Positions 1,394 to 22,239 are shown, counted from the first letter of the stretch. The stretch is 29,522 nucleotides of DNA from Pseudomonadota bacterium (GCA_046724215.1 JBKOWC010000176.1:1-29522); one strand, 5' to 3'. Numbers and translations: made by a program. The notes: generated by a model from the letters alone, not told the origin.

Positions 1394-2467
1394 CTACCCG
1401 CGTATTGCTCGTCCGGATTCGACGTCGAAGAGATGCACACGCTCAAGCGCCGGGCTTAGCCACAGATCCATGCCCGGGTCCAGGGCCAGACGCTCTGCTG
1501 TGATCGCACAAACCTCGACGCCGCAGAGCTCCGCATAGATATGTATCTCCGGGCCGGTTGGCTCGACGGTGGCGACCTTGACGGCGAGGTCACCGCGGTC
1601 CTTCGCCGGCCGCAAGTGTTCGGGCCGCACACCATAGGCTACCTTCTGACCCGGTCGCACCGCGGAGCCCGGCGGAAGCGGCAATGCGGTCGCGCCGACT
1701 CTCAGTGCGGGTTTGCCGCCCTCCGTTGAAACTTCGCCGCGAAGTATGTTCATGGTGGGCGAGCCGATGAATTCGGCGACGAACAGGTTCGCGGGATGGT
1801 CATAGACCTCGAGCGGACCGCCGACCTGCTCGATATGCCCGTCGCGCAGGATGACGATGACGTCAGCCATGGTCATGGCCTCGAATTGATCATGGGTGAC
1901 GTACACGGTCGTGGTGGAAAGCCGTTGATGCAGCTCCTTGATCTCAGTGCGCATCTGCGAGCGCAGCTTGGCGTCGAGGTTCGAGAGCGGCTCGTCGAAC
2001 AGGAAGACGGCGGGGTCGCGCACGATCGCGCGGCCCATGGCGACCCGCTGGCGCTGCCCGCCCGAGAGCTGGCGCGGCAGGCGCCTGAGATAGGGCGTGA
2101 GATTGAGGATCGAGGCCGCCCACTCGACCTTCTTCGCGATCTCGTCCTTCGGCGCCTTCTTCAGCTGCATGGAAAAGGCCATGTTGTCGAACACCGTCAT
2201 GTGGGCGTAGAGAGCATAGTTCTGGAACACCATGGCGATGTTCCGATCCTTCGGCGGCAGGTCGTTGACGACGCTGCCGCCGATGGTGACCTCACCGGAG
2301 GTGATGGGCTCGAGCCCGGCGATCATGCGCAGCAGGGTTGACTTGCCGCAGCCGGACGGCCCAAGGAGCACGAGGAAGGCGCCGTCATCGATCTCGAGAT
2401 CGAGGCCGTGAATCACCTCGAGATCGCCGTAGTTCTTCCTTATGTTTCTGAGCGTAACGGCAGCCAT
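1394..2467 (-). CDS. CUT1 sugar ABC transporter ATP-binding protein (MalK/UgpC family)
   Basis: Walker [10 protein letters not shown]-loop VFQNY, signature LSGGQRQR, Walker B FLFDEP, D-loop LSNLD, H-loop VTHDQ, C-terminal GVRPEH. ATG at 2467 overlaps the upstream kinase stop. Confidence 0.95.
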
Positions 2468-3999
2468 CAACCTGCCTCCGTGAATGCGGCCAGTCGCGCG
2501 TTCCAGGCCGACAGGGTCGGCCAGAGATCAGCGTAGATCGCGCGGAGCTCCCCGTAGCGTGCGTGGCGCTTCGGGTCAGGCTCAAAGTCGCGGACCGGGC
2601 GGCCCGCCATCGCTGCTGCGGCCTGCGCGATCGTCCCGTACCAGCCAGCACCCTTCGCGGCGGCAATGGCGGCACCGAGCGCCGAGGCTTCCACAGTCGT
2701 GGAGCGCTGTACCAGCCGGCCGGTGGCGTCAGCGAGGATCTGTGCCCAAAGATCTGAGGCGCCGCCGCCGCCGATGACGACGTAGCGGTCGATGCCCACG
2801 CCTGTCGCCGCGACGACACCGTCGGTGGACAGGGCTTGCTCCAGCGCGATCCCTTCCAGCAGAGCCCGATAAACGTCGCCGCGCTTCGTCGAACCGGACA
2901 GCCCGGCGATGACGCCGCGCGCATTGCAGTCCCAGTAGGGAGTCATGCAGCCTTGCCAATAGGGAACCAAGACCACGCCGCCCGCCCCGATCGGGCTGGC
3001 GGCGGCCTCCGCTTCCAAGGTTGCGAGGATCGTGCGCTGCTGCGCCGGCTCGACCAGCAGCATCTCACGCGCCAGCCAATCGACCAGGAAAGTGCCAGCG
3101 CGCACACAGGTCTCGAAAATGTAGCCGGCATCGGCGATCGCAATCTCGGTGCGAAAGGCGCGGTCGTGAGCATAGTCCGCGCCGAAGCTGCCGGAGACCG
3201 CGGCCGTCCCCAGATTGATATACGCCTGACCGGGAACGCCGGCACCGACTCCCGCGCCGGCACCCGCGCACTGGCCGTCGCCGCCGGCGGCAATCACGGG
3301 TGTACCCGGGACCAACCCGGTTTCCAAAGCCGCCTTGGCGGTCACCTCGCCCATCGACGCACCCGGCGGAACGAGCCGCGGCATCCGCGCCGGGTCGACG
3401 CCAGCGGCATTCAGGACCTCGTCGGACCAGACGCGACGGCGCATGTCGAGCGCCCCCGTGGGATCCGCAGAGGCCGTCGAGGTGACCCAATCTCCCGTCA
3501 GGCGAAAAGAGAGGTAGCCGTGCACCTCGGCGATCCGCTCGGCGCGTGCGAAGATCTCCGGTTCGTTCTCCGACAGCCAGATCATGCGATAGAGGCAGGG
3601 GATGACGTCGAGCGGCTTGCCGGTGATGGCGTGAACACGCTCGGCGCCGAAACTCTCGCCAAATCGCCTTTGCTGTGGCCGCGCTCGCTCGTCGAGCCAA
3701 ACCATGCCCGGCCGCAGCGCCCTGCCGTCTTGCGCAAAGACGCCGAAGGTCTCGCGCTGGTTGGAAACGCCGATCGCCGCGACGCGCGCCGCGTCCAGCT
3801 GTCCGGTCAACTGCCTAAGCGCCTGCGCCGTCGAGTTCCACCAGTCGGCGGGATCCTGTTCGAAATGGCCAGGCAACGGATTCGCCATGGCGATCGGCGC
3901 CCGGCCTTCGCCGACCGCCCGGCCCTCGCTGTCCCAGGCGATTGCCTTGGTGGCGGTTGTCGAGGAATCGATGCCGATGACGAGGTCTGCCATCATCAC
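2467..3999 (-). CDS. FGGY-family carbohydrate kinase (xylulokinase-like, substrate unknown)
   Basis: [12 protein letters not shown] phosphate-1 motif, NQRETF, WLDER, GGGDGQ, RALLEG, IGGG. Start could be 3999 (GTG), 3996 or 3993 (ATG). Confidence 0.9.
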
Positions 4000-4009
4000 T
4001 GTTTATCAG

Positions 4010-4041
4010 AAAAACAAACGGAGGCGGCCGGTGCCGCCTCC
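4010..4041 (-). terminator. Intrinsic terminator-like hairpin after the solute-binding protein gene
   Basis: 9-bp stem GGAGGCGGC (4020-4028) / GCCGCCTCC (4033-4041), 4-nt loop, followed on the minus strand by GTTTGTTTTT. Confidence 0.7.
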
Positions 4042-4062
4042 GCGTCTGTTGCTGCCGTTGGC

Positions 4063-5583
4063 TCAGAGCAAGCCGGCTTCCTTGACCTTGGCGTCAACCA
4101 GGCCGGCCACGGTATCCATGCATTTCTTCGCACTGCCGCCGTAGTCCTGACCGGTCAGAAGCTTGCCGAGCTCGGTCGGGATCTCGTTGGTGGAAAGCCC
4201 GGCCCAGACCGGCATGTCCGGTTCGGACGCCATGACGTTGTCGATTGTCCACTTGACGATCTCGAGATGGCGCGTCGTGCCGGCGCCGACCTTCGCCTTC
4301 GCCTTGACGCGCGGGTCGGCAAAAGAGGATTCGCGCATCGGCGCGAAGCCGCCCGCCAGCGTGCACTGGGTCATGATCTCCTTCGAGCAGGCCCACTGCA
4401 TGAAGATCCAGGCCGCTTCCTGATTCTTCGAATAGGCGGATAGGCTCATCACCGAACCGCCCTGGTGTCCGAGATTGGGGAGTTCGCCGAAGCCGGCATC
4501 GGCGGACGCCCGCAATGCCCCCTGCAACGGCTTGGACGGCTCCCACAGGCCGCGGACCTTGGAATCATCGGCGTCGAGGCCGGGAAAGAACTCGTCCCAG
4601 CTCTGCACGAGCGCCACCTGTCCCGAATGCATCATCTCGAATTGGCCGTCCCAGGTGGAGGCAGTCGAGTTCGGCGGCGCGACGGTCAGGAGCTCCTGGT
4701 ACCATTCAAGGCCCTTGATGCCCTGCTCGTCGTTGCCGGCGAACTTCTTGTCCTTGCCGAAGATCGACCCGCCATGACCCCACACCGCCTGCGTCCAGTC
4801 GCATTCCAGCGAATAGTGGCCGGACTTGGCCTGCAAACCGGTGCCGAAGACGCCGTTGCCCTTCTCGGCCGCGGCGATCGCCTTGGCGGCGGCGGCGAAT
4901 TCCGGATAGGTCGTGGGCACCTTGATGCCGTGCTTGTCCAGCAGGTCCTTGCGGTACATCAGGATGAAGATCGGGATGTCGAACGGAATGCCGACCATCT
5001 TGCCGTCGTAGAGCGCGAGGCCCTCGACCAGCGGCTTCGAGAAATCGTCCCAGTCGAAGCCCGGCATCGCCAGGTCGGCCTTGGTCTTGTAGTAGTCGAC
5101 GGGGTCGATGCAGTCCTGCGCGAAGGTCGCCACCCAGGACTGGTCGAGATAGTAGAGGTCGTAGGTGCCGAGCTGACCCTGGACGTCCTGGGTCGCCTTG
5201 GCGAGCACCTGCTCGAGCGGGACGATCTCGACCTCCACCTCGATACCCGTGAGGTCGGTGAATTCCTTCTTGATCTGGTTCAGGACGACGCTCGGCGGCG
5301 TCGCCTCGCTGGTGTAGCGGATCTTGGTGCCCTTGTACTTGCCGCCGACCTCTTTCAGGAACTTGACGACGTCGTCGGGCATGTCCGCGCGCGCCGCATC
5401 GCCGATCAGTCCGGGGCCGCGGAACGGCCGACGGCCGCCGAGCATCGCCAGGGAGAAGGCGGAAAAGCCCACTCCGGCCAGCCCCATCCGGCGCAGGAAC
5501 TCGCGCTTCGAAATACGCCGTTTGGCAAAGTCTCCCGCCGCGTCGACGATGAAAGTCTGTTTATCGTGTTTCTTGAAACTCAT
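4063..5583 (-). CDS. CUT1 ABC transporter solute-binding protein, probable Tat substrate
   Basis: RBS ggaggagcacgATG. N-terminal RRISKREFLRR followed by a hydrophobic stretch. GIPFDIPIFILMYRKDLL and GG..MSLSAYSKNQEAAWIFMQW segments typical of SBP_bac_1/8. Confidence 0.9.
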   Translation of the reverse strand: MSFKKHDKQTFIVDAAGDFAKRRISKREFLRRMGLAGVGFSAFSLAMLGGRRPFRGPGLIGDAARADMPDDVVKFLKEVGGKYKGTKIRYTSEATPPSVVLNQIKKEFTDLTGIEVEVEIVPLEQVLAKATQDVQGQLGTYDLYYLDQSWVATFAQDCIDPVDYYKTKADLAMPGFDWDDFSKPLVEGLALYDGKMVGIPFDIPIFILMYRKDLLDKHGIKVPTTYPEFAAAAKAIAAAEKGNGVFGTGLQAKSGHYSLECDWTQAVWGHGGSIFGKDKKFAGNDEQGIKGLEWYQELLTVAPPNSTASTWDGQFEMMHSGQVALVQSWDEFFPGLDADDSKVRGLWEPSKPLQGALRASADAGFGELPNLGHQGGSVMSLSAYSKNQEAAWIFMQWACSKEIMTQCTLAGGFAPMRESSFADPRVKAKAKVGAGTTRHLEIVKWTIDNVMASEPDMPVWAGLSTNEIPTELGKLLTGQDYGGSAKKCMDTVAGLVDAKVKEAGLL

Positions 5584-5629
5584 CGTGCTCCTCCGTTTGT
5601 TTGTCGCGTTTCAGGCTCGTCCACGCGTC

Positions 5630-6517
5630 CTATTCCTTGAGCGATCCCAGGGTCAGGCCGCGAACCAGTTGCTTTTGCACCAGCAGGATGAAGATGAAGC
5701 TCGGCACTACGGCGGACGTCCCGAGTGCGGAGATGAAACCCCATTCCGACCCGGTCGACGTCACAAAGGTCGAGATCTTGACCGGCAGCGTGCGGATCGA
5801 ATTGGTCAGGAACAGCGAGAGCAGGAATTCGGTCCATGAGAAGATGAAGCAGAGCACTGCCGTCGCAGCCGCCCCGCCGGTCACCAAGGGCAGCACGACT
5901 TTGCGGAAGGTCTGGAACCGGGTCGCGCCGTCGATCATGGCAGCCTCGTCGACTTCGACCGGTACGTCGTCGAAGAAGGATTTCATCAGCAACACCGCGA
6001 CCGGCAGGTTGATGAGCGTATCGACGAAGATCAGGCCGAGACGCGTATCGCGCAGGCCCAGATAGTGGAACATGAAGACCACCGGCACGATGATGGCGAT
6101 CGGCGGCATGAAGCGCTGCGACAGGATCCAGTTCAGGTAGCCTTGCCGCCCGCGGAAGCGGAGCCGCGACAGCGCATAGGCGGAACCGACGCTGATCGCG
6201 ATCGTCAGCGCCGTCGCGCCGACGGCGACGATGATGGAATCGATGATGGTCTGGCGCGAGTCGTAGGAACTGACGCCGCCGACGCCGAAGGTGTCGCCGC
6301 TGTCGATCGCAAGCTCGGCGCGCGACTTGCCGAGCAGGGTCACGGCATAGTTGATCAGTGTCGGCACGAAATCGAAGAACACGACCCTGTCCTTGTCGAA
6401 GATCGCCGAGGTCGGCTTGAACGAGGTGAGCGCCCACCAGAAGAGCGGGAACATGAAGAGCGCCACCACGGCGACCGCGGCGACATCACGTAAGATGCGC
6501 TTCGCCCGCGGCGGCAT
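5630..6517 (-). CDS. CUT1 ABC permease (MalG type)
   Basis: True start MPPRAKRILRD at 6517 overlaps the previous stop (TGATG). EAA motif EVDEAAMIDGATRFQTF, FIFSWTEF. The ORF-track extension to 7462 is an alternative frame of the upstream gene. Confidence 0.92.
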   Translation of the reverse strand: MPPRAKRILRDVAAVAVVALFMFPLFWWALTSFKPTSAIFDKDRVVFFDFVPTLINYAVTLLGKSRAELAIDSGDTFGVGGVSSYDSRQTIIDSIIVAVGATALTIAISVGSAYALSRLRFRGRQGYLNWILSQRFMPPIAIIVPVVFMFHYLGLRDTRLGLIFVDTLINLPVAVLLMKSFFDDVPVEVDEAAMIDGATRFQTFRKVVLPLVTGGAAATAVLCFIFSWTEFLLSLFLTNSIRTLPVKISTFVTSTGSEWGFISALGTSAVVPSFIFILLVQKQLVRGLTLGSLKE

Positions 6518-7431
6518 CAGAACCTCACCTTGAAGATCTTGATGAAGAGACTGGAGGTCACGATCACCAGGATCAGCGTCAGCAGCGCGATCGTCGACGC
6601 GTACGGGAAGTCGGCGTTCTTGAAGTAGATCGTGCCGGCATAGGCGGTGAGCGTCTCGGTCGCGGTGCCGGGCCCGCCCTCGGTCATGACCTTGATGTAG
6701 TCGTAGGTGCGGAACAGGTCGACGCCCCGGATCAGTACGGCGATGGCGATGATCTTCGACAGCATCGGCAGCGTCAGCTTGAAGAACATCTGGACGGCGG
6801 TCGCCCCGTCGATGGCGGCGGCCTCGTAGGGCTCCTTGGGCAACGCCCGCAGGCCGGCCATCATGATCAGCACCATGAAGGGGGTCCATTGCCAGATGTC
6901 GGCAAGCAGGATGCCGAACAAGGCCGAGCTCGCGGTGGCCAGAATCGGGTGGCCGGGCGACCACAGGCCGGCGGCGTAGAGCGTGCGGCTCAGGACGCCA
7001 AAGGAACCGTCCAGCATCAAAAGGAACATCATGCCCGTGACCGCCGGCGGTACCACGAGGGGCAGCGTCATCAGCGCGCGCAGGAGTCCATAGCCCCGAC
7101 GATCCGAATCCAGCAGCAGCGCGATCAAAAGGCCAAGCACCAGTTCGATCACGAGGGCCACGGCCGTGTAGAGGAACGTATGACCGATGGCGCCCCAGAC
7201 CCGCTCGTCGACAAAAACCTTCGTCCAGTTCCAGGCCGGATCGAAGATGCTGAGCCGCGTCGCCGGGTTGCGCTTGTGCAGCGACAGCCACAGGGCATAG
7301 AGCAGCGGGTAGATGCCGAACACGAGCAACACCGCCGTGATCGGGAACAGCCACGGAAACGGATGTTCCGAGCGCAAAAACCGCGGCAGGACGAAGCTGC
7401 GCGGCGCCCCCAATACGGCGGCCTGGCTCAT
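6517..7431 (-). CDS. CUT1 ABC permease (MalF type)
   Basis: DIWQWTPFMVLIMMAGLRALPKEPYEAAAIDGA EAA motif, TEGGPG, multiple hydrophobic helices. Confidence 0.93.
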   Translation of the reverse strand: MSQAAVLGAPRSFVLPRFLRSEHPFPWLFPITAVLLVFGIYPLLYALWLSLHKRNPATRLSIFDPAWNWTKVFVDERVWGAIGHTFLYTAVALVIELVLGLLIALLLDSDRRGYGLLRALMTLPLVVPPAVTGMMFLLMLDGSFGVLSRTLYAAGLWSPGHPILATASSALFGILLADIWQWTPFMVLIMMAGLRALPKEPYEAAAIDGATAVQMFFKLTLPMLSKIIAIAVLIRGVDLFRTYDYIKVMTEGGPGTATETLTAYAGTIYFKNADFPYASTIALLTLILVIVTSSLFIKIFKVRF

Positions 7432-7484
7432 GCTGCCGTCGCCCGTCCAGGTGGGTTGACAATGGCGACCAGCGCCCGGATCAT
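7428..7484 (-). CDS. 18-aa mini-ORF (MIRALVAIVNPPGRATAA) coupled to the permease start
   Basis: GGAGG 9 nt upstream of ATG 7484. TGA at 7430-7428 overlaps the permease ATG (ATGA). The permease ATG has no obvious SD of its own. Confidence 0.45.
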   Translation of the reverse strand: MIRALVAIVNPPGRATAA

Positions 7485-7573
7485 ATCGATCTACCTCCCA
7501 TCATCTCGTTCTCGCACGGGGCTCTGCGGCCCCTTCAAGTCCTTGGTTGCCGCCCGTGCGGCAAATCGACGGC

Positions 7574-8575
7574 TCAGGCCGTAGCGACCAGCGCCTCCGC
7601 CGTCGCCTCGTCGGTAACGAGGATCGTGGCGTAGCCGCCACGCAGCATCGCCTGGATCGCCTGGATCTTTCCCGGTCCGCCGGCGACGCAGATGCGCTCG
7701 GGAATTCGGGCTATCTCGCGAAGCGTCAGGCCGATCATCTGATCATCGAGCGGACCCAGTACCGGCCTGCCGTCGCCGTCGAGGAAGCGCCCGGCCATCA
7801 CGCCCACGGCGCCACCATCCTTGTACGGACGCATCTTCTCGGCCGTCATGTAGCCGCTGCGCAGGGCCATGCTGGCGCTGCCGAGGCCGGCCACACCGAA
7901 GAGGATCTTGGTGCAGGAGCGGATGAGCTTGAACTGCTCGACCAGCGTCGGCTCCTGCATGAACAGCGTCTTGATTTCCGGCCGCGACACGATGCCCGGC
8001 GCATGCAGGTTGACGCAGCGCGCTCCGATCCGATAGGCGATGTTGGACGTGCAAAGCTCGGGGGAAAATTCCGCCGTGCCGATCGCGCTCCCGGCGATCT
8101 GCACCACCGATACGCCCGGAAGCTGTACCTCGGGCAGAGCGGCCGAGAGGGCCAGCACCGTCCGGCCCCAGGATACGCCGAGCACGTCGTTCGGCCGCAG
8201 GATGTCCAGCAGGAGACGGGCCCCTGCCCGACCGATCCGCTCGTAGTCGGGGAGTCGCCCGCCGTCATCGGGAATGACGACGCAGCTCGTCAGGTCGAAG
8301 CGCTCGCGTATGTCGTGGGAGATTCGCACCGACTGGAGAGAATTCGAGGCGACCGCGATAGTCACGATGTTCCGGTCCCGCGCCTCCTGCAGGAAGTTCA
8401 CGACAGAGGGCCGGGAAACACCGAGCCGGTCCGCTACTTCCTCCTGGGTCATGCGCTCCTCGTAGTAGAGCCAAGCAGCCCACGCGATGGGATCGCCGAC
8501 GAACTCGGGCGGCGTGGACAACGCACTCCGCTTGACGCGCGACGGGGCCGATTTCCGATCCTGGCTTCGAACCAT
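7574..8575 (-). CDS. SorC/DeoR(B. subtilis)-family sugar-binding transcriptional regulator
   Basis: AAWLYYEERMTQEEVADRLGVSRPSV HTH, GVSWGRT, VAGGPGKIQAI, LVTDEATA. RBS ggaggctcggagaATG. Confidence 0.93.
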   Translation of the reverse strand: MVRSQDRKSAPSRVKRSALSTPPEFVGDPIAWAAWLYYEERMTQEEVADRLGVSRPSVVNFLQEARDRNIVTIAVASNSLQSVRISHDIRERFDLTSCVVIPDDGGRLPDYERIGRAGARLLLDILRPNDVLGVSWGRTVLALSAALPEVQLPGVSVVQIAGSAIGTAEFSPELCTSNIAYRIGARCVNLHAPGIVSRPEIKTLFMQEPTLVEQFKLIRSCTKILFGVAGLGSASMALRSGYMTAEKMRPYKDGGAVGVMAGRFLDGDGRPVLGPLDDQMIGLTLREIARIPERICVAGGPGKIQAIQAMLRGGYATILVTDEATAEALVATA

Positions 8576-8602
8576 TCTCCGAGCCTCCAGCGCGCGTAAG
8601 AA

Positions 8603-8632
8603 AAAATGTCACTACGTATTGACATTTGTCAA
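8603..8632 (-). promoter_or_regulatory. Candidate sigma70 promoter for the regulator/ABC operon
   Basis: TTGACA (8632-8627), 18-nt spacer, CATTTT. Weak -10. Confidence 0.35.
8604..8632. promoter_or_regulatory. Nested inverted repeats, candidate operator in divergent promoter region
   Basis: AAATGTCA(8604-8611)-N8-TGACATTT(8620-8627) overlapping TTGACA(8619-8624)-TT-TGTCAA(8627-8632). Confidence 0.6.
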
Positions 8633-8647
8633 GAGCGCTGGAAATCT
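8619..8647 (+). promoter_or_regulatory. Candidate sigma70 promoter for the G1PDH-like gene
   Basis: TTGACA, 17-nt spacer, AAATCT (keeps the conserved A and T positions). Confidence 0.45.
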
Positions 8648-8766
8648 CCTGCTCAGGCGTCAGTTCTGTTGCCCGAAGCGCTCCTTGGTAGGTCAAGGCA
8701 GCGCGAGCGATTTTTAGTTCGTCGCAAAGTCCGAGCTCGGTCTTTGTACTGTTGGTGCCTGCACAG

Positions 8767-10080
8767 ATGGGACGCTGGACATCGCTGATCGACGACATGG
8801 TTGCGGGCCGCTGGATCAATCCGGAAACCGGGCAGCCCGGCAAGGTCCCCTATGAAGCTGTCGTGATCGAGGAGCGGCTGGACGGCAGCGAGGCGGATCT
8901 GGTGGGAAGGCTCGGATTCCGTGGGCGGCTTGCCGTCGTATCCGACCAGGACACCCATGACGTGATGGGCGCCCGAGTCGCGACCGCGCTGCAGGCGGTG
9001 GCAACCGTCGAGAGCATCGTGCTCGAGCATCCGCATGCCGACGAAGCGAATGTCGCCGCGCTGCGCGAGCGCGTGCGTCATGCTGACGCCCTTGTCGCGG
9101 TCGGGTCGGGTACGATCAACGATCTCTGCAAATACGTGACGGCCACGGACGGCCGCGCCTACTGCGTCTTCGCCACGGCGCCGTCCATGAACGGCTACAC
9201 CTCCACGACCGCGTCGATCACGCTGGCGAACGGCCTCAAGGTCTCGAAGCGGGCGCACGCGCCCAAGGGCGTCTTCATCGACCTTGCCGTCAACGCGGCC
9301 GCGCCGACCTACCTCCTGGCCGCCGGCTTCGGCGACTGCCTGGTGCGGTCCGTGGCCCAGGTCGACTGGTGGCTGTCGAAGCGCCTGCTCGACACGTTCT
9401 ATACCGACCTGCCGTTTCGCATCGAACTGGCGGACGAGGCGGAGCTGATGGCGCGCGCCGGCGATCTCGCACGCGGCGATATCGAGGCCGTCGGCTATCT
9501 CCACCGCGTGCTCACCCTGTGCGGCTTCGGCGTCAGTTTCACCGGCGCGACCAACCACGGATCCATGGGGGAGCATCAGATCTCGCATTACATCGATTGC
9601 TTTGCTGGCGACCGACATCCGGGCACACTGCATGGCCAGCAGGTCGGCGTCGCCGCCCTGACGATGGCCCGGTTGCAGGCGAAGATCCTCGACACGGACG
9701 CCCCTCCGGTCGTCGCCGCAACGAGCGTGGACGAGACCGACATGCGCCGGCGCTACGGCGACGAGGTTTTCGCGATCTGCCGTGCCGAACTCGATCAGAA
9801 GGCGCTCGACGCCGCGGGCGCCGACAGACTCAATGCGAAACTCGAATCGATCTGGCCGCAACTCCGCTCGGAACTGCAGGCATTCAGGGTGCCGGTCGAG
9901 AGGATGCGCAGCGCGCTCGCCAGTGCCGGCGGGCCGACCACGGCAGCCGCACTCGGCCTCGACGTGGGCTTCTACCGAGAGGCGGTGCGTCACGCCCGTG
10001 AAATCCGCAAGCGCTATTCGGCGCTCGATCTGGCCGCCGACGCCCGTCGCCTGGACGAGTTCGCCGCCGGGGAAGGCTGA
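8767..10080 (+). CDS. sn-glycerol-1-phosphate dehydrogenase-like protein (EgsA/AraM, DHQS-like fold)
   Basis: VGSGTINDLCK, TAPSMNGYTS, AGFGD, GEHQISH and HGQQVG motifs match the NAD- and metal-binding motifs of EgsA/AraM. Start ATG 8767 or GTG 8752, no clear SD. Confidence 0.8.
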   Translation: MGRWTSLIDDMVAGRWINPETGQPGKVPYEAVVIEERLDGSEADLVGRLGFRGRLAVVSDQDTHDVMGARVATALQAVATVESIVLEHPHADEANVAALRERVRHADALVAVGSGTINDLCKYVTATDGRAYCVFATAPSMNGYTSTTASITLANGLKVSKRAHAPKGVFIDLAVNAAAPTYLLAAGFGDCLVRSVAQVDWWLSKRLLDTFYTDLPFRIELADEAELMARAGDLARGDIEAVGYLHRVLTLCGFGVSFTGATNHGSMGEHQISHYIDCFAGDRHPGTLHGQQVGVAALTMARLQAKILDTDAPPVVAATSVDETDMRRRYGDEVFAICRAELDQKALDAAGADRLNAKLESIWPQLRSELQAFRVPVERMRSALASAGGPTTAAALGLDVGFYREAVRHAREIRKRYSALDLAADARRLDEFAAGEG

Positions 10081-10094: not shown

Positions 10095-10943
10095 TTACCA
10101 TCGCAATTCCTTCAAGATCCAGTCTGGCGTATCGCCCGCGGCCCCGTCGCGCGCCATGAGCGCTGCCACGCTGAGATCGGCGGACACCCCGGAGCGGACA
10201 AGTGCCGTCGCGGCGGAGATGGTCGCTGCCCCGGCTATGTCGTGATCAATGCTGTCGCCGATCGCCAGAACGCACGCCGGTGGCGGATGGCCAGCCAGCT
10301 CGAGGGCAGATTGATAGATCTCTCGAAACGGCTTGCCGATCCATCGCACCGGCCCACCCAGGGAGGAATATAGATCGGCAATGGCGCCGGGTGCCGCAAC
10401 CGGACCACGGGCGGTTAGCATGAGGCGATCGGGATTGCAGCATAGCGCCGGCAATCCTGCTTCCGCCGCAGGCCGCAGCAACCTGGCGTAGTCATCCAGG
10501 CTCGTCGCCGGGGCATTGGATCCCAGGAACAGGACGAATTCGGACTGCTCCGGTAAGTCGACTGAGACGAGGCCCAGATCGTCGAACCCATAATCGTCAC
10601 CGGCCCGCCCGACGATGCAGACTCGTCGGCAGGTACGGAATGGATCCCCGAATGCGCCGTCGCGAATGCCCCGCCACGCCACTTCGCCGGAGCTGACGAC
10701 ATCCAGGAACAGCGAGCGATCCAGACCGAGCCGTAGGAGGCGATCCCGATTGGCTGCTGCGCGCTTGCCGGAGTTTGTCACGACGATGGAGCGCGCCCCA
10801 CGTCGAGCAAGCTGCAAGAGAACGGGAAGGACTTGATCATAGAGGCGCTGCCCATCATGGAGCACGCCGTATTGATCGAAGAGAAACACATCGTAGCGGT
10901 CGGCAATCTCGCCGAGCCCCGCGATTTCCTGTGGGCGCGTCAT
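10095..10943 (-). CDS. HAD-superfamily subfamily IIA hydrolase (TIGR01459-like; synteny equivalent of S. meliloti rbtC)
   Basis: FLFDQYGVLHDG motif I, VTNSGKR, CCNPD, IGKP, AIGDSIDHDIAGA. ATG 10943 overlaps the upstream stop. Confidence 0.88.
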   Translation of the reverse strand: MTRPQEIAGLGEIADRYDVFLFDQYGVLHDGQRLYDQVLPVLLQLARRGARSIVVTNSGKRAAANRDRLLRLGLDRSLFLDVVSSGEVAWRGIRDGAFGDPFRTCRRVCIVGRAGDDYGFDDLGLVSVDLPEQSEFVLFLGSNAPATSLDDYARLLRPAAEAGLPALCCNPDRLMLTARGPVAAPGAIADLYSSLGGPVRWIGKPFREIYQSALELAGHPPPACVLAIGDSIDHDIAGAATISAATALVRSGVSADLSVAALMARDGAAGDTPDWILKELRW

Positions 10944-12223
10944 GTGCTGACGCTGAGCCCGATGCCCTGCCAAGCCAGGCGCGCCGCTCCGACCGCCGCT
11001 TCTTGGGAGCGGACCGGCAGAAAGGGCACGCCGAGCCGGGCCTCTCGAATCCTGCTCCAGGCCCGATTGAGCGCCCCGCCACCGACGCTCCGCATGCTCC
11101 GGAGCGGCGTTGCGCCCAGTTCCGCCAGCCGCCGATAAGCGGTCGCCTCGATCGCTGCGATGCCTTCAAGGAGGCCCTGGAGGAAGACGCGGTCGTCTGC
11201 CGGCCGCGGCGTGATCCGCGGCTGGAGCGACGCGTCGTTGAAGGGAAATCGCTCGCCTGGTGTCGTCAGCGGATAGTAGTCGAGGCCGGTCGGCCGCGTG
11301 GGATCGAGGCTCGGCTCAAGCTCCCGGAGACGCTGCGCAGAGAAGAATGATGCCAGGACCGCGCCGCCGGTATTGGACGCACCGCCCGCCAGCCAGGCGT
11401 CCCCGATGCGGTGACTATAGATGCCGAACTGCGGTGCGAAGATCGGCGCCTCGGTCAGCAGTTTCAGAGTCAATGTCGAGCCAAGTGATGTGACACCGTC
11501 GCCCGGCCGGTCCGCGCCGGTAGCCAGAAACGCGGCGCATCCGTCGGTCGTGCCAGCGACCACGGAGACGTCGTCAGGCAAGCCGAAATGTTGCGCGACA
11601 GCCGGCAGCAGTTGGCCGATGCGCGAACCGGCCGGCACGACAAGAGGAAGCAGGTCGGGCTGCATCCCAGCGAGTCCGATCCAATCAGGCCATTGCCGCA
11701 GAACGGGATCGTAGCCCGTCTTCAGCGCGTTGTTTTCGTCGGTGACATCGAAACGCCCAGACAGCTGCCCGGCGATCCAATCAGCCTGATGTAGGATGCG
11801 CGCAACGCCTGGCGTCCCTTGCAACTGGAGTGCCCGGCCGAGAGCGGAGCTAGCGCCATGGGCCGCCGTTGTCGGTGGCGCCACCGCGGCAATCACCTTT
11901 GCCTGATCGGCTGCCGAAGCGTCGTTGTATAGACGGGCCGGAGCCAGCGGCCGCCCGGCGGCATCGACTGCCAACACCGTGCCCGAGGTGCCATCGACGG
12001 CGAGCGCCCGTACGGCCTTGGCGTCGATCTGGCCGAGAAGCTCTGTCAGTGCACGGCCAGCGGCCGACCACCAGATGTGCACGTCCTGTTCGATGACCGG
12101 CCCATGCCGCAACGCCGGCGGCAGCGCCTGCGAAGAAGCAGCGACCAATTGCCCGGTTCGATCGACAGCGCAGATGCGGATTCCGGACGTCCCGACGTCG
12201 ATGCCGAGCGCAAGTCCCGTCAA
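10940..12223 (-). CDS. Short FGGY-family carbohydrate kinase (synteny equivalent of rbtB)
   Basis: LGIDVGTSGIR, VDGTSGT, AGTTDG, SLGSTLTLK, GGASNTGGAVL, LLEGIA. Likely TTG start at 12223 with GGAGG RBS, overlapping the previous stop. Confidence 0.88.
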   Translation of the reverse strand: MTGLALGIDVGTSGIRICAVDRTGQLVAASSQALPPALRHGPVIEQDVHIWWSAAGRALTELLGQIDAKAVRALAVDGTSGTVLAVDAAGRPLAPARLYNDASAADQAKVIAAVAPPTTAAHGASSALGRALQLQGTPGVARILHQADWIAGQLSGRFDVTDENNALKTGYDPVLRQWPDWIGLAGMQPDLLPLVVPAGSRIGQLLPAVAQHFGLPDDVSVVAGTTDGCAAFLATGADRPGDGVTSLGSTLTLKLLTEAPIFAPQFGIYSHRIGDAWLAGGASNTGGAVLASFFSAQRLRELEPSLDPTRPTGLDYYPLTTPGERFPFNDASLQPRITPRPADDRVFLQGLLEGIAAIEATAYRRLAELGATPLRSMRSVGGGALNRAWSRIREARLGVPFLPVRSQEAAVGAARLAWQGIGLSVST

Positions 12224-13290
12224 CCGGGCCTCCGCGCCAACGTCTTGCGATACCGCTCCGCGTCCCAATTGAGGAGGGCCGCCTCGTCCTCCGGCGATAG
12301 CACGCGGATCGGTTCATCATCGGAGAGTCGCGACAACACATCACTGAGACAGCCCACCATCGCTTCCACCGCCGGTGGTGCGGTCGCCCGGATGAGCACG
12401 CCCTTGCCCGGCGCCAGAATAAGCGGCGGCTCGCCTCGCCCCTCCTGGTTCGCGCGCCGCAGGCCGGCATCCACGGTCTCGTTCTGCCGCAACACGAAGA
12501 CGCCCGGGCCCAGGAATACGACATGATCCGGATACAGCGAGCCGCGCTGCGCGATCGCCAGACTTTGTGGATCCGTTGCGACGCCGTGCGCGCTGGTCAT
12601 CCTTGGTAATCGGTAGATCGATCCGCCGGCAAGCATCGCCAAGCCGGCAATGTCTGGGTCGGGCGCGGAGTGCGTCGGTCGCCGCAGTCTTGTAGAAACC
12701 TCTGTCAGCATCGCTGCCGCCGCCGCGACGGTCTGACCGGCGACCACAAGCCCGTGGTTCGCCAGTACGACGACCACCGTCTCGACCTGTCGTCGTCGGT
12801 TGATCAATTGCGTCAACGGCAGCCCTGGCCGCACATAAGGGACGAAGCACCAGTTCAACCCCCGCAGTCGATGCGCCAGCTGGACTTCGGCATCGGCGCG
12901 CACCGCCCAGGCGATGGTCTCGACGCAATGCACATGCAGCACCACGGGCTGCGGCAGCGCCGCGTGCATGGTCGTTTCGATCGACGGCCGCAGTCCCGTC
13001 GAATCCTGTCCGGCAACCACGAACTCGACGCCGCTTTCGCAGGCGGGATCGCCCCGGTCGATGGCCGCACGCAGCGGCGCGAGGTCGACCGCGACCATGA
13101 TCGGGCGTTCGCGGGCCTGCGAGAGCCAGGTGCCGGAGGCCTTGATCCACATGACGCCATTGCGCTTCAGCGAGGTGTTCCCGCCCGGACCCTGGACAAG
13201 CGCAGGATCGCTCCCGAGTTTCGCCGAGAGGTCGCGCAGGGCCGCGAATTCCGGATCGGCCAAGGCGGATTCATGCGGCGTCGTCATCAT
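12220..13290 (-). CDS. Class II aldolase/adducin-family protein, RhaD-like N-domain without SDR domain (synteny equivalent of lalA)
   Basis: VQGPGGNTSLK, WIKASG, LRPSIETTMHA, VLHVH, LANHG, GSLYPDHVVFLG. ATG 13290 overlaps the eryB stop. Confidence 0.85.
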   Translation of the reverse strand: MMTTPHESALADPEFAALRDLSAKLGSDPALVQGPGGNTSLKRNGVMWIKASGTWLSQARERPIMVAVDLAPLRAAIDRGDPACESGVEFVVAGQDSTGLRPSIETTMHAALPQPVVLHVHCVETIAWAVRADAEVQLAHRLRGLNWCFVPYVRPGLPLTQLINRRRQVETVVVVLANHGLVVAGQTVAAAAAMLTEVSTRLRRPTHSAPDPDIAGLAMLAGGSIYRLPRMTSAHGVATDPQSLAIAQRGSLYPDHVVFLGPGVFVLRQNETVDAGLRRANQEGRGEPPLILAPGKGVLIRATAPPAVEAMVGCLSDVLSRLSDDEPIRVLSPEDEAALLNWDAERYRKTLARRPG

Positions 13291-14777
13291 GCCACCTGCA
13301 GCCAGTTTGCGAAGGCTTCTCGCGACGCCTGATCGAGATGCAGGCCGTGCTTGGTCCGTCGGAGCAGCATGTCCTCGGCGGTCTCCGCCCACTCCGTCTC
13401 GCGCAGATAGTGGGCCTCGCGCTCGTATAGCAGGCCGCCGAAATGCCGCCCGAGGTCAGCCAGCGAACGCGCCGCGCCGATGATGGCATCGGCGCGCGTG
13501 CCGTAGAGCCGCGCATAGTGTTGCGCCAGTGGCACCGGAAGCCACGCATGACGCTGCCGCAGGGTGGTGAGAAAGGCGTCGAAGTCGCTGCGCGGCAGAT
13601 CGCCGCCGGGCAGCGGCGCGGTTGCGGTCCATGCGCTGCCCATCCGTGGAAATACGCTCGCGAGTTCGGCCATGGCGTGCTCGGCCAGCTTCCGGTAGGT
13701 CGTGATCTTGCCGCCGAATACCGACAGGATCGGCGCGCCGCCGCCACTGTCCGTGTCGAAGACATAGTCGCGCGTCACCGCGGAGGGATTGGCCGCATTG
13801 TCGTCGTAGAGCGGGCGCACGCCGGAATAGGCATGCCGAATGTCGGCACGGTGCAGTTCGTGGGTGACATAGCGGTTGACGGCCGCAAGCAGATAGTCGA
13901 TCTCCGCATCGTCGATGGCGACGTCCTCGGCGGCCCCGGCATAGGGCACATCGGTCGTGCCGATGAGACAAAGGTCGTCTTCGTACGGATTGACGAAGAT
14001 CACGCGCCGATCGTGATTCTGGAACAGATAGGCCTGCGGACCCTCCCAGAACTTCCGCACGACGATATGGCTGCCCTTGACGAGCCGCACGCGGCGCCGC
14101 GAATTCAGGCGCGCGACCTGGCCGATGACGCCCTCGACCCAGGGCCCGGCGGCATTGACGATCGCCCTCGCCCGCACCTGGGACGCCGAGCCGTTACGCA
14201 GCAGGTCTACCTCCCAGACGCCGTCGATGCGCCGCGCCGAGCGCGCCGCCGTTCGCGTCAGCACCGTGGCCCCGAGCCGACTGGCGTCCAGCGCGTTCAA
14301 GACCACCAGACGGGCATCGTCGACCCAGCAGTCCGAATACTCGAAGGCCAGCCGGAATTCATCGCGGATGATGCGGCCTTCCGGCGCGGCGCGCAGGTTG
14401 ATGCGACGACAACCCGGCAATCGCTTGCGACCGCCGAGATGGTCGTAGAAAAACAATCCCAGGCGGACGAGCCAGGCAGGCCTCTGCTCGGGCGAATGCG
14501 GCAGCACGAACCGCATCGGCCAGATGATATGCGGTGCCGCCGCCATAAGAACTTCGCGCTCGATCAGTGCCTCGCGCACAAGCCGGAACTCGTAGTACTC
14601 GAGATACCGCAGGCCGCCATGAACGAGCTTGCCGGATCGAGAACTCGTTCCTTCTGCAAGGTCGCCTTTTTCGCAGAGGAGGACCGACAATCCCCGTCCG
14701 GCCGCGTCGCGGGCAATCCCCGCCCCGTTGACGCCGCCGCCGATCACCAGGAGATCGACCGTCCCGTTGTTCGCCAT
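13287..14777 (-). CDS. eryB: Erythritol-phosphate dehydrogenase (FAD-dependent GlpD family)
   Basis: GGGVNGAG, GTSSRSGKLVHGGLRYLEYYEFRLVREAL, QNHDRRVIF and NPSAVTRDYVFD closely match EryB as I recall it. Located in an eryA/eryD locus. Confidence 0.9.
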   Translation of the reverse strand: MANNGTVDLLVIGGGVNGAGIARDAAGRGLSVLLCEKGDLAEGTSSRSGKLVHGGLRYLEYYEFRLVREALIEREVLMAAAPHIIWPMRFVLPHSPEQRPAWLVRLGLFFYDHLGGRKRLPGCRRINLRAAPEGRIIRDEFRLAFEYSDCWVDDARLVVLNALDASRLGATVLTRTAARSARRIDGVWEVDLLRNGSASQVRARAIVNAAGPWVEGVIGQVARLNSRRRVRLVKGSHIVVRKFWEGPQAYLFQNHDRRVIFVNPYEDDLCLIGTTDVPYAGAAEDVAIDDAEIDYLLAAVNRYVTHELHRADIRHAYSGVRPLYDDNAANPSAVTRDYVFDTDSGGGAPILSVFGGKITTYRKLAEHAMAELASVFPRMGSAWTATAPLPGGDLPRSDFDAFLTTLRQRHAWLPVPLAQHYARLYGTRADAIIGAARSLADLGRHFGGLLYEREAHYLRETEWAETAEDMLLRRTKHGLHLDQASREAFANWLQVA

Positions 14778-14804
14778 GTGCGACCGCTTCGCCTGGCGAA
14801 CCCG

Positions 14805-15488
14805 TCACGCGCGTTTGCGCTTGAGCTTCGCGGGTGCGTCCTGCAAGCCGTAGGTGGCAAACCCCTTTCGCGTGTCCTCGATGAGCGCGTCGGAGAGGAT
14901 GTGAGGTCGGCCCAGCGTGAGCGCGTGGTAGTACTGCTTGGCGATCGTCTCCAATTCCACCGCCAGCCACATGGCCTTGTCGAGATTGGCGCCCGTGGCG
15001 ATCACGCCGTGATTGGCGAGCAGGCAACCGGCGCGGCCTTCAAGTGCCTTCAGGGCATTCACCGACAGTTGCTTGGTGCCGTACGTGGCATAGTCGGCGC
15101 AGCGGATATCGTTGCCGCCGAAGGCGGCGATCATGTAGTGGCAGGCGGGAATCGTCTTGCGCGCGATCGCCAGCACTGTCGCAAAGGTGGAATGCGTGTG
15201 CACGATGCCGCCGACTTCCGGACGCGATCTCATGATGTCGTAGTGAAAGCGCCATTCCGTCGACGGCTTCAGCGGCCCCTCCCAGGCGCCGTACTCGCCG
15301 GTCAGCGGCATGGTCGCTATCATTTCGGGCTCCATGGCGTCGTAGGGCGTGGCGCTCGGCGTCACCAGCATGACGTCCCGGTAGCGCGCGGAGATGTTGC
15401 CCGACGTTCCCTGGTTCAGCCCGGAGTCATTCATCCAACGGCACTTGGCGATGATTGCCTCGCGCAACTTGCGTTCGTCTCTCGTCAT
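14805..15488 (-). CDS. fucA: L-fuculose-1-phosphate aldolase-like class II aldolase
   Basis: GTSGNIS, VTPS, KPSTEWRFH (catalytic Glu), IVHTHS and LANHG Zn ligands. RBS CAGGAG best fits ATG 15488; 15494 is the alternative. Confidence 0.8.
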   Translation of the reverse strand: MTRDERKLREAIIAKCRWMNDSGLNQGTSGNISARYRDVMLVTPSATPYDAMEPEMIATMPLTGEYGAWEGPLKPSTEWRFHYDIMRSRPEVGGIVHTHSTFATVLAIARKTIPACHYMIAAFGGNDIRCADYATYGTKQLSVNALKALEGRAGCLLANHGVIATGANLDKAMWLAVELETIAKQYYHALTLGRPHILSDALIEDTRKGFATYGLQDAPAKLKRKRA

Positions 15489-15524
15489 GGACATCTCCTG
15501 GAATTCGCTTGCCGCATAGGTGTC

Positions 15525-16565
15525 TCAACACGGATTCATGGGCGGCTCGGCAGCGATGAAGCGGCGCACCTCCTCGGCGGCTTGCGCCGCCGCGATCCGG
15601 ACAGTCTTCAGCGAGGCGCCGGCGATGTGCGGCGTCAGCGTCACATTCTCAAGCTGGAGCAGCGGCGAGTCCGCCGGGGTCGGCTCGACGGCGAAGGTCT
15701 CCAGCATTGCCCCGCGCAGGTGGCCGCTGCTCAGAGCCTCGTGCAGGGCGCCGTAATCGACCATCGGCCCGCGCGCGGTGTTTATGAAGTAGGCGCCTTT
15801 CTTCATGCGCGCGAAGGCCTCGTGGTTCAGCATCCGGGTCGTCTCCGCCGTGACGCGGGCGTGCAGCGTGACGACGTCGGATTCGACCAGCAGGCGATCG
15901 AGCGGGACGTGCTGCACCGCGTCGGCACGGTCTTCCGGACTCAGCTGGACGTAGGGATCGCAAACCAGAACGCGGCAGCCGAATGCCTTCAGCAGCTTGA
16001 CGACTCGCGTGCCGATGGCACCGTAACCGATGACGCCGACCGTCATGTCCGAAAGCTCGTCGCCGGCCGTGTCGGCACGGTAGAGGTCGCCGCGCCAGTT
16101 TCCCGCGCGCAGCGCATCGTGCCCGCGCGTGATGTTCCGCGTCTGCGCCAGGATGGCGCCGATGGCGAATTCGGCGACGGCGCTGGCGTTCCGCCCGGGC
16201 GTATTGACCACGCAGATCTTGCGCGCCCGCGCCGCCGGCATGTCGATGTTCACCGGGCCGCCGCGCGACACCGCGACGAGCCGCAAATTCGGCAGCCGAT
16301 CCATCATCGAGGCGGATAGCGGCGCCAGATGCGTGACGAAGATGTCCGCATCGCCGACGAACGCGATCACGTCGTCGGGTTCGCCGAGATACTCCTTCAG
16401 GCCATCGAGCCCGGCCTTGGCATAGCCATGCTCCATGGCGACATCCGGCCATGGCAGGTCCTGCTTGCGGATCGCCAGTTCTTCGGTCCGGCAACGCGCG
16501 CGGATCGCCGTCTCGAAGACATCCGACAGCATGAACCGGTCGCCCATGATGGCGATCCTCGGCAT
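15525..16565 (-). CDS. D-isomer-specific 2-hydroxyacid dehydrogenase family protein (synteny equivalent of rbtA)
   Basis: NTPGRNASAVAE, GVIGYGAIG, DPY, INTARG, TFAVEP, TPHIAG. ATG 16565 overlaps the eryA stop. Confidence 0.9.
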   Translation of the reverse strand: MPRIAIMGDRFMLSDVFETAIRARCRTEELAIRKQDLPWPDVAMEHGYAKAGLDGLKEYLGEPDDVIAFVGDADIFVTHLAPLSASMMDRLPNLRLVAVSRGGPVNIDMPAARARKICVVNTPGRNASAVAEFAIGAILAQTRNITRGHDALRAGNWRGDLYRADTAGDELSDMTVGVIGYGAIGTRVVKLLKAFGCRVLVCDPYVQLSPEDRADAVQHVPLDRLLVESDVVTLHARVTAETTRMLNHEAFARMKKGAYFINTARGPMVDYGALHEALSSGHLRGAMLETFAVEPTPADSPLLQLENVTLTPHIAGASLKTVRIAAAQAAEEVRRFIAAEPPMNPC

Positions 16566-18130: not shown

Positions 18131-19263
18131 GCGAGGCCCCGGCCATGCGCGATGACCCGCCCGCCGTCCGCATCGAACAGGTGCAGGTCCTCCGCCATCA
18201 CATTGAATGGGATGTCCTGGCCGACGCGGACGTCGACGCGCTGGTGTGCGACCACCACCATGAGGCTTCCCGCGACATCGGCCGCGATGTGGCTCTGGTC
18301 TCCCAGCCATTGGTTCGAGAGCACCGTCGCTTTGAGCTTGGACTCCTGGAGCCGGACCGCATGCGGCCGGATGCCGAGGGCGACCGAGCCGCGTGATGCC
18401 AGAGCATCGCGCACGGGGGTGCCGATATCGGACTCGGCGTAGTCGAACGCCATCCCTTGGCTGCCCGCGATCACGAAACGCACGCGCCCGCCCGACATCT
18501 CCGGTCGCGTCGCAAACACATTCATCGGGGGCTCGCCGATGAATGTACCGACGAAGAGATTGGCCGGCCGGTCCTTCAGTTCACGCGGTGTCGCGACCTG
18601 TTGCAGAACGCCGCCTTCCATCACCGCGATGCGGTCGGCGAGCGCGTTGGCCTCGGTCTGGTCGTGCGTCACGAGCACGGAAGTCATGCGGCGCTCGCGC
18701 AGATAGTGCTTGAGCCGGCCGCGCAGGATCGCCCGCAGCTGCGGTTCCAGCTGTCCCATCGGCTCATCGAGCAGATAGAGGTCGGCCTGGCGCACGAGGG
18801 CGCGGGCCAGGCTGGCGCGCTGCTGCTGGCCGCCCGAGATCGATGAGGGATAGCGATCGAGAATGTCCGTGATCTCCAGCAGCGCCGCGATGTCCTGGAC
18901 GCGCCTGTTCTCTTCGGCTTTCGCCAGCCGCGATGATTTGAGCGCGAAGGCGATGTTGTCGCGGACGGTCAGCGGTGGATAGAGCGAGTAACCCTCGAAC
19001 GCCATCGCCACATGGCGTTTCGCCGGCGGCAGCAGATGGATCGGCTGGCCGTTGATGGCGATGGCGCCCTCTGTCACGGCTTCGAATCCGGCGATCATCC
19101 GGAGCGTCGACGTCTTGCCGCAACCCGACGATCCCAAGAGCGCCACGGTCTCGCCGGGCCGCACGGCCATCGTCAGCGCCTTCACCGCGTGCACCGGTAC
19201 GCGCCGGCGTGGCCGGTAGATCTTGTCGACAGCGTCGAGGCTGAGGACGTCGGACGCGCTCAT
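18127..19263 (-). CDS. CUT1 ABC ATP-binding protein 2 (MptE-like)
   Basis: GSSGCGKT, AFEGY, ISGGQQQR, YLLDEP, VTHDQ. ATG 19263 overlaps the upstream stop. Confidence 0.93.
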   Translation of the reverse strand: MSASDVLSLDAVDKIYRPRRRVPVHAVKALTMAVRPGETVALLGSSGCGKTSTLRMIAGFEAVTEGAIAINGQPIHLLPPAKRHVAMAFEGYSLYPPLTVRDNIAFALKSSRLAKAEENRRVQDIAALLEITDILDRYPSSISGGQQQRASLARALVRQADLYLLDEPMGQLEPQLRAILRGRLKHYLRERRMTSVLVTHDQTEANALADRIAVMEGGVLQQVATPRELKDRPANLFVGTFIGEPPMNVFATRPEMSGGRVRFVIAGSQGMAFDYAESDIGTPVRDALASRGSVALGIRPHAVRLQESKLKATVLSNQWLGDQSHIAADVAGSLMVVVAHQRVDVRVGQDIPFNVMAEDLHLFDADGGRVIAHGRGLA

Positions 19264-20363: not shown

Positions 20364-20366
20364 CCC

Positions 20367-21224: not shown

Positions 21225-21234
21225 GGACGGTCCC

Positions 21235-22170: not shown

Positions 22171-22205
22171 AACTCCAGGCGATCAGTTTGTCGGCCGAGG
22201 AAGCC

Positions 22206-22239
22206 GGGCGCAACCCGCTGCGCACGGCGGGTTGCGCCC
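22206..22239. repeat. 13-bp perfect inverted repeat between SBP and first permease
   Basis: GGGCGCAACCCGC (22206-22218), 8-nt loop, GCGGGTTGCGCCC (22227-22239). No U-tract. Confidence 0.75.

Follow-up and report, generated by a model that had tools for sequence, protein, structure and literature searches.

Analysis of a 29,522-bp stretch of DNA from a Pseudomonadota bacterium (GCA_046724215.1, JBKOWC010000176.1:1-29522; this whole stretch is called the window in the following) confirmed that positions 1394-10080 hold a real self-regulated gene set for an importer, a kinase, and a dehydrogenase. Scans of six-frame open reading frames (ORFs) against the Pfam and NCBIfam families detected a SorC-family regulator, an ATP-binding cassette (ABC) importer of the CUT1 type, an FGGY-family kinase, and a dehydrogenase resembling sn-glycerol-1-phosphate (G1P) dehydrogenases (G1PDHs), i.e., all components that an initial annotation of this DNA had assigned to the unit. 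We tentatively propose that these genes form a substrate-inducible module for the uptake and activation of a small acyclic sugar alcohol, which would be phosphorylated, then oxidised, and finally subjected to aldol cleavage, a reading that we hold to be plausible though somewhat short of probable. Within it, we infer the order of steps, the phosphorylated substrate, its stereochemistry, the product, and the effector. The source genome is a metagenome-assembled genome (MAG) of 3.2 Mb, 68% complete, with best matches to Dongia/Dongiaceae.

Proteins of the window and of the corresponding gene cluster of Sinorhizobium meliloti were mapped onto 80 loci from species-representative genomes. Since the same set of genes recurs around an orthologous dehydrogenase gene in these 80 loci of other genomes, its arrangement is far beyond chance; altogether, the module recurs in hundreds of alphaproteobacteria, including S. 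meliloti. Partner shares were determined for the 54 loci flanked by 8 kb or more on either side, based on orthologs of at least 40% identity within 10 kb. The highest share was found for a HAD-IIB phosphatase of 270 aa (93%), followed by the SorC regulator (81%), the FGGY kinase (80%), the CUT1 ABC system (72-74%), and a short-chain dehydrogenase/reductase (SDR) of 241 aa (67%). Any class II aldolase was present in 63% of the loci, a FucA-like one in 39%, and a RhaD-like aldolase-SDR fusion in 30%, while a GlpD-like dehydrogenase was found in 37%. Thus, the gene set described at the outset was borne out, but it was incomplete at the level of the family, to which HAD-IIB, the SDR, a class II aldolase, and often the GlpD-like enzyme belong as well. 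In 13 of the 80 loci, Mpt/EryA/RbtC genes are located next door as in the window. A well-supported separate clade (L080:9965-19857; L055, L066, L067, L070, and L081-L085) combines SorC, dehydrogenase, HAD-IIB, GlpD-like enzyme, and FGGY kinase with a ribose-type ABC transporter (CUT2) and a second FGGY kinase, and carries no aldolase. The phylogenetic tree departs from species relationships, with Thiothrix and Vulcanimicrobiota placed among alphaproteobacteria, which indicates horizontal transfer.

The initial annotation had made its reading depend on a co-occurrence of kinase and dehydrogenase across genomes, and this was found: an FGGY ortholog of at least 40% identity lies within 10 kb of the dehydrogenase gene in 43 of the 54 fully flanked loci, and overlaps between the two genes were observed in two further clades. 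In most of the loci that lack a close FGGY ortholog (e.g., L055, L066, L067, L070, and L080-L085), FGGY kinases with identities of about 30% were identified. On another contig, the same MAG encodes a paralogous dehydrogenase, which is 48% identical to that of the window and reached 176.4 bits with the G1PDH equivalog (cut-off 413). Its gene overlaps the upstream gene for a XylB-like FGGY kinase in an operon (genome G000, contig C192 = L006:8021-11591, minus strand) that is preceded by an ABC permease gene and also encodes a HisA/HisF-related TIM barrel protein (253 aa) of an uncharacterised family. Hypericibacter adhaerens (L097) likewise has the trio of TIM barrel, FGGY kinase, and Fe-ADH_2 dehydrogenase under a DeoR regulator, and the gene of a metagenomic family member with 38% identity also overlaps an FGGY gene. 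As a side observation, the best PDB matches of the TIM barrel protein were G1P-binding geranylgeranylglyceryl phosphate synthases, though these were weak (E 3e-4).

The dehydrogenase has a length of 437 aa, with the ATG at 8767 as its most likely start. It scored 150.7 bits with the NCBIfam G1PDH equivalog (NF002022) and did not reach the cut-off of 413. The AlphaFold2 model (pLDDT 94.8) displayed a two-domain fold like that of dehydroquinate synthase, and the best PDB match was Bacillus subtilis AraM (9H4X; TM 0.84, by target; 24% identity), followed by G1PDH of Methanocaldococcus jannaschii (TM 0.81-0.83, by target) and then by glycerol dehydrogenases. Across 34 homologs, residues D190, H270, and H289, which we take from family knowledge to be the metal ligands, were invariant together with G113-S114-G115-T116. 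The same holds for the motifs GSGT, TAPS, GFGD, GEHxISH, and LHG, which are common to AraM; the motif residues align with GFGD, GEHHISH, and LHG of that protein. With a model for the haloarchaeal glycolaldehyde reductase, only a weak match was obtained (29.6 bits). Homologs of the dehydrogenase number in the thousands and carry the automatic names "sn-glycerol-1-phosphate dehydrogenase" or "iron-containing alcohol dehydrogenase"; one in S. meliloti is 64% identical. An exhaustive search (E <= 1e-30) resulted in 614 clusters at 50% identity for this long-form branch, and more than 150 such clusters are nearer to the dehydrogenase of the window than AraM is. The best PcrB/GGGPS match (PF01884) in the 68% complete MAG reached 20.9 bits and thus remained below the cut-off of 23.9, which makes a lipid-type use of G1P unlikely.

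For the kinase, the score with the XylB model TIGR01312 was 298.9 bits (cut-off 380.25), i.e., below the threshold, and that with GlpK 201.8 bits (cut-off 590). Its best PDB match was XylB of Escherichia coli (2itm, 168 bits), and it is 44% identical to the kinase of the S. meliloti cluster and 29% to EryA of the window. To judge from family knowledge, XylB-type kinases generate a D-configured terminal (omega) phosphate with the configuration of sn-G1P; EryA and GlpK generate an L-configured end resembling sn-glycerol-3-phosphate, which is then handled by EryB and GlpD.

The regulator carries a helix-turn-helix (HTH) and a PF04198 domain, and a palindrome was found at its own divergent promoter, as is typical of the SorC class. 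It resembles DeoR of B. subtilis and LsrR with scores below both cut-offs and is 45% identical to the regulator of the S. meliloti cluster and 27% to EryD of the neighbouring locus. The candidate operator at 8604-8627 is a 24-bp palindrome (AAATGTCACTAC/GTATTGACATTT) and represents the sole exact TGTCA-N8-TGACA in the window; this single occurrence fits a regulon limited to the 1394-10080 unit. In 12 of 75 loci, an exact TGTCA-N6-8-TGACA precedes the orthologous dehydrogenase gene by 56-117 bp, and additional loci of this set match the core with one mismatch, at a chance expectation that we estimate at a few thousandths per locus. SorC regulators usually sense sugar phosphates. An Lsr system for autoinducer-2, which also comprises SorC and FGGY proteins, was considered and rejected, as the transporter is of the CUT1 type, matches to LsrR and LsrK were far below the cut-offs, and neither LsrF nor LsrG was found.

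The importer consists of an SBP_bac_1/8 binding protein, two BPD_transp_1 permeases, and one ATPase of the MalK/UgpC type with a TOBE domain, and thus is a CUT1 system. The ATPase reached 494.9 bits with the NCBIfam UgpC subfamily (cut-off 432). Compared to the S. meliloti cluster, the identities were 52% for the ATPase, 54.5% for permease 1, and 49% over 290 aa for permease 2, the latter identified by tblastn; its open frame of 295 aa translates cleanly and includes an EAA-type loop. The binding protein, for which the coordinates given at the outset proved exact, yielded an AlphaFold2 model with a pLDDT of 83.5. Its nearest solved relative was 5IAI (TM 0.87, by target; 27% identity), and further structural matches were maltose/trehalose binders and the sorbitol/mannitol binder 4RYA. 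Structure 5IAI holds ribitol (PMC8468352). In the binding protein of the module, a twin-arginine-type RRxFL signal follows a predicted helix, an arrangement kept in 31 orthologs; all orthologs have about 500 aa, with the motif near residue 25. Both CUT1 binding proteins of the window, i.e., this one and MptA (22259-23785), measure about 505 aa, and their N termini extend some 80-100 residues beyond the typical one. The hairpin at 4018-4043 is formed by a stem of 11 pairs, nine of them G-C, followed by a T run, and represents a match to the consensus only; it may attenuate transcription within the operon or stabilise the upstream transcript. The ATPase gene, which is needed for transport, is located downstream of this strong intra-operon hairpin.

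Taken together, we suggest the following route. The SorC repressor would bind the palindrome between the divergent promoters and be released by a phosphorylated intermediate. A polyol would be imported via the CUT1 system and phosphorylated at a terminal hydroxyl by the XylB-like kinase, leading to a D-configured end that resembles G1P. The AraM/G1PDH-like, metal- and NAD(P)-dependent dehydrogenase would then oxidise the adjacent carbon to a ketose-1-phosphate, which a class II aldolase would cleave into dihydroxyacetone phosphate (DHAP) and a short aldehyde. In the window, this last step would fall to the FucA-like enzyme encoded in the neighbouring locus; in the majority of the other genomes, it would be catalysed by FucA or the RhaD-like aldolase-SDR fusion of the module itself. 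On paper, xylitol 5-phosphate would lead to L-xylulose-1-phosphate, a RhaD-type substrate, and D-arabinitol 1-phosphate to D-ribulose-1-phosphate, a FucA-type substrate, so that these products match the two aldolase types present in the module. In its fullest form, this proposal makes kinase and dehydrogenase a stereochemical mirror of EryA/EryB, which would turn the D-configured end of a polyol into ketose-1-phosphates for class II aldolases, with HAD-IIB as a safety valve or an additional step; this version appears possible but rather doubtful to us.

Several points weigh against the proposed route. The tightest partner of the dehydrogenase, the HAD-IIB phosphatase, is superfluous to a sequence of kinase, dehydrogenase, and aldolase, so that part of the conserved core is left unexplained. 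The idea of phosphorylation followed by oxidation put forward in the initial annotation is coherent and in line with the observed co-occurrence, but does not account for this partner. In 20 of the 54 loci as well as in the two nearest relatives of the window copy, no aldolase is located nearby. A family member with 34% identity stands alone among housekeeping genes, so that the link between kinase and dehydrogenase, though strong, has exceptions. The identity of the binding protein to the ribitol binder is as low as 27%, and disaccharide binders reached scores almost as high. B. subtilis AraM is a proven G1P dehydrogenase (PMC5059525). A haloarchaeal enzyme that bears the annotation G1PDH proved to be a glycolaldehyde reductase (PMC9700705), and such an annotation alone therefore cannot carry the argument. 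D-arabitol was considered as the substrate of the module in S. meliloti and found unlikely, as growth on it depends on smo/mtlK (PMC10433430). Finally, the substrate, regiochemistry, stereochemistry, and ketose-1-phosphate product of the route rest on inference.

Among the alternatives, the same kinase-first route might proceed by oxidation at the distal C2, leading to a pentulose-5-phosphate or hexulose-6-phosphate with direct entry into glycolysis or the pentose phosphate pathway; e.g., xylitol-5-phosphate or ribitol-5-phosphate would be converted to xylulose-5-phosphate or ribulose-5-phosphate. Such a route would do without an aldolase, in agreement with the minimal unit of the window and its nearest relatives, which has none of its own, and with the 20 of 54 loci without an aldolase within 10 kb, and the similarity of the kinase is closest to xylulokinase. 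However, the active-site motifs are those of the G1PDH/AraM type, i.e., of enzymes oxidising the carbon adjacent to the phosphate, and class II aldolases are found in 63% of the loci, often right after the dehydrogenase gene. We regard this variant as unlikely.

About equally unlikely is a genuine G1P/DHAP dehydrogenase that would serve the use of glycerol via G1P or of a compound from which G1P is released (e.g., fragments of head groups or teichoic acids) or, together with the HAD partner, the interconversion of DHAP, G1P, and glycerol. The closest solved relative, AraM, is such an enzyme (PMC5059525); kinase and dehydrogenase alone would reach DHAP, which suits the minimal unit, and HAD and the frequent GlpD-like partners fit a glycerol-phosphate chemistry of both enantiomers. 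On the other hand, the dehydrogenase is only 24% identical to AraM and scored 150.7 bits at an equivalog cut-off of 413, the conserved aldolases and SDR would have no role in a C3 route, the module includes no phosphodiesterase, and the kinase is XylB-like and not GlpK-like. Furthermore, we know of no glycerol 1-kinase.

A lower probability is given to a reductase of an unphosphorylated aldehyde (glycolaldehyde or lactaldehyde) released by the aldolase, analogous to FucO with FucA and to a haloarchaeal trio. A trio of an enzyme of the Fe-ADH superfamily, HAD, and FucA-like aldolase recurs in these loci and matches the families of the haloarchaeal pathway (PMC9700705), and there is the weak match of 29.6 bits to the glycolaldehyde reductase model. 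Yet the match to G1PDH is fivefold stronger, and the dehydrogenase shows translational coupling to kinases and persists in loci without a nearby aldolase; moreover, oxidation of such aldehydes would be expected in aerobic alphaproteobacteria, a step which the aldolase-SDR fusion already supplies. A redox epimerisation, in which FAD-dependent oxidation of a carbon resembling that of sn-glycerol-3-phosphate by a GlpD/EryB-type enzyme is followed by G1PDH-like reduction of the ketone to the opposite configuration, so that a polyol phosphate would be inverted in place of EryC, seems very improbable: though a GlpD-like gene follows the dehydrogenase and HAD-IIB genes in the same operon in 37% of the loci, occurs there with a single main kinase in the CUT2-type clade, and the neighbouring locus is without EryC (cf. 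Geddes 2013, PMC3599248), a GlpD-like gene is absent from most loci and from the closest relatives.

Compared to its relatives, the copy of the module in the window is trimmed, as it has no HAD-IIB, SDR, or aldolase of its own; orthologs of HAD-IIB and SDR were not found elsewhere in the MAG, which is 68% complete. A relative with 91% identity comprises SorC, two permeases, the binding protein, kinase, and dehydrogenase, and another one with 80% identity the same content plus an SDR and the ATPase. Both are flanked by unrelated genes, and no HAD-IIB, aldolase, or ery-type locus is located in the vicinity of either. Since the closest relatives thus carry a reduced unit beside unrelated genes, the unit is autonomous, and its adjacency to a polyol locus is not ancestral in this lineage. 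For this lineage, its initial description as a self-contained unit was therefore accurate.

The polyol locus next to the module (10095-25103) encodes EryD, MptABCDE, EryA, LalA, FucA, EryB, RbtB, RbtC, and a HAD protein, but no EryC, TpiB, or RpiB. Such a type of locus was given for Bradyrhizobium, Acidiphilium, and Verminephrobacter by Geddes and Oresnik (2013, PMC3599248). Module and locus are joined tail-to-tail as annotated before, with the stop of the dehydrogenase gene 14 nt from that of a convergent HAD-IIA gene (10095-10973). The latter, which is the final gene of that locus, was rejected as a member of the module, being part of the neighbour's conserved RbtB-RbtC-HAD unit. The FucA-like protein of this locus resembles L-fuculose-phosphate and ribulose-1-phosphate aldolases and is the only copy in the MAG. 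Its orthologs (52-74% identity) are part of the dehydrogenase module in many genomes, often right after the dehydrogenase and HAD-IIB genes, and switch between this module and the Mpt/Ery-type locus from genome to genome. The orthologs inside the modules of other genomes lend some support to an aldolase step common to both loci, and, judged from these sequence comparisons, the FucA-like aldolase of the neighbouring locus is likely a shared downstream enzyme. In the erythritol/adonitol locus of S. meliloti, the fucA-type aldolase was reported to be dispensable (Geddes 2013, PMC3599248). Loci with regular membership of FucA in the module are L033, L035, L039, L050, and L071-L079; this membership may explain the "orphan" status of the gene in ery loci.

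A full-text search of the literature revealed no paper describing this alphaproteobacterial module, in agreement with the earlier remark that it was not recognised as a described pathway. Like the module, the erythritol pathway of Brucella/Rhizobium and the polyol locus of the S. meliloti/Bradyrhizobium type (PMC3599248) comprise a SorC-family regulator, an ABC importer, and a kinase acting first, followed by oxidation of the polyol phosphate. Such a locus adjoins the module in the window and in 13 of the 80 loci compared, and a FucA-type aldolase is common to both. In contrast, the dehydrogenase of the module is NAD(P)- and metal-dependent with a G1PDH fold, while EryB is an FAD enzyme with a GlpD fold, and the identities are low (kinase 29% to EryA, regulator 27% to EryD, binding protein 22% to MptA). 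EryC, EryH, and EryI are absent, and HAD-IIB and the SDR are the usual extra partners. Family scans detected no DAO-family or isomerase gene within 1394-10080; EryB is encoded in the neighbouring locus. Based on sequence, the module appears to follow an Ery-like kinase-first logic, but it does not belong to the Ery group.

The ara operon of B. subtilis (araABDLMNPQ) resembles the module in its gene families, as it encodes a CUT1 ABC system, an FGGY kinase, an enzyme of the class II aldolase family, and AraL, a HAD phosphatase. Its Ni2+-dependent AraM (9H4X) is not only the best solved match of the dehydrogenase, but also a long form that is extended by C-terminal helices and carries identical motifs. 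Apart from the identity of 24%, one difference is that the product of AraM feeds PcrB, of which none above the cut-off was found in this MAG; another is the HAD partner, which is of type IIB in the module and of type IIA in the ara operon. Archaeal EgsA, the G1PDH of ether-lipid synthesis, shares PF13685, the fold, and the Asp/His/His metal-site motifs, but the enzyme of the module is about 90 residues longer, remains below the equivalog cut-off (150.7 vs. 413 bits), and is found in a catabolic context without lipid genes. The haloarchaeal non-carboxylating pentose bisphosphate pathway includes a HAD ribulose-bisphosphate phosphatase, a FucA-like ribulose-1-phosphate aldolase, and a glycolaldehyde reductase annotated as G1PDH (PMC9700705), so that the same three enzyme superfamilies travel together. 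Differing from this pathway, the module is connected with an FGGY kinase and an ABC importer and has neither a ribose-1,5-bisphosphate isomerase nor a nucleoside phosphorylase.

In archaea, the G1PDH family is known to provide the lipid backbone, while its bacterial members, including AraM in the ara operon, are poorly explained. In soil- and plant-associated alphaproteobacteria, genes of the long-form branch recur in sugar-alcohol loci together with those for FGGY kinases, HAD phosphatases, and class II aldolases. If the mirror of EryA/EryB proposed above were true, it would represent the first catabolic role for this family and a widespread, undescribed phosphorylative route. Assignment of the substrate would close a gap in the polyol catabolism of genetically tractable bacteria like S. 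meliloti, Bradyrhizobium, Mesorhizobium, and Agrobacterium, could correct the widespread annotation "sn-glycerol-1-phosphate dehydrogenase", and could account for fucA-type aldolases in erythritol/adonitol loci.

The coordinates of all features are compiled in Table 1. The dehydrogenase gene is divergent from the gene for the SorC regulator. The junctions between the genes for permeases 1 and 2 and for kinase and ATPase are TGATG overlaps, in which the ATG of permease 2 at 6517 overlaps the stop of permease 1 and that of the ATPase (2467-2465) the stop of the kinase. An ORF at 5580-6437 was rejected as the second permease, as it had no family match and the true gene (5630-6517) is located in a different frame, namely that of a long ORF (5630..7462).

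Table 1. Features of the 1394-10080 module and the FucA-like aldolase gene of the adjoining locus
Feature	Coordinates	Strand	Evidence
ABC ATP-binding subunit, UgpC/MalK type, CUT1	1394..2467	-	PF00005, OB_MalK, TOBE_2
FGGY-family carbohydrate/polyol kinase, XylB-like, not an equivalog	2467..3999	-	FGGY_N + FGGY_C
Terminator-like hairpin between binding-protein and kinase genes	4018..4043	-	11-pair stem, T run
CUT1 periplasmic solute-binding protein, long twin-arginine-type leader	4063..5583	-	SBP_bac_8, SBP_bac_1
ABC permease 2, coordinates corrected	5630..6517	-	tblastn + open frame
ABC permease 1	6517..7431	-	PF00528, UgpA-like NCBIfam match
SorC-family regulator, HTH + sugar-phosphate-binding domain	7574..8575	-	PF04198, 203 bits
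Candidate SorC operator, divergent promoter region	8604..8627	.	palindrome
Long-form Fe-ADH_2/AraM-like (G1PDH-like) NAD(P)-/metal-dependent dehydrogenase	8767..10080	+	PF13685, 116 bits
FucA-like class II aldolase, neighbouring locus	14805..15494	-	PF00596, 177 bits

The base composition is even over the whole window, and an Rfam scan of it resulted in no match at the gathering score. The region of about 1.4 kb located 3' of the ATPase gene (1-1393) holds two ORFs (2-604 and 226-753) and no recognisable gene; no match to a Pfam or NCBIfam family and no resemblance to an ORF from the 80 related loci was detected there. Relatives carry a FucA gene at the matching position. At its right end (25743-27866), the window includes the start of a further ABC system with BPD_transp_2 permeases of the CUT2 or branched-chain type.

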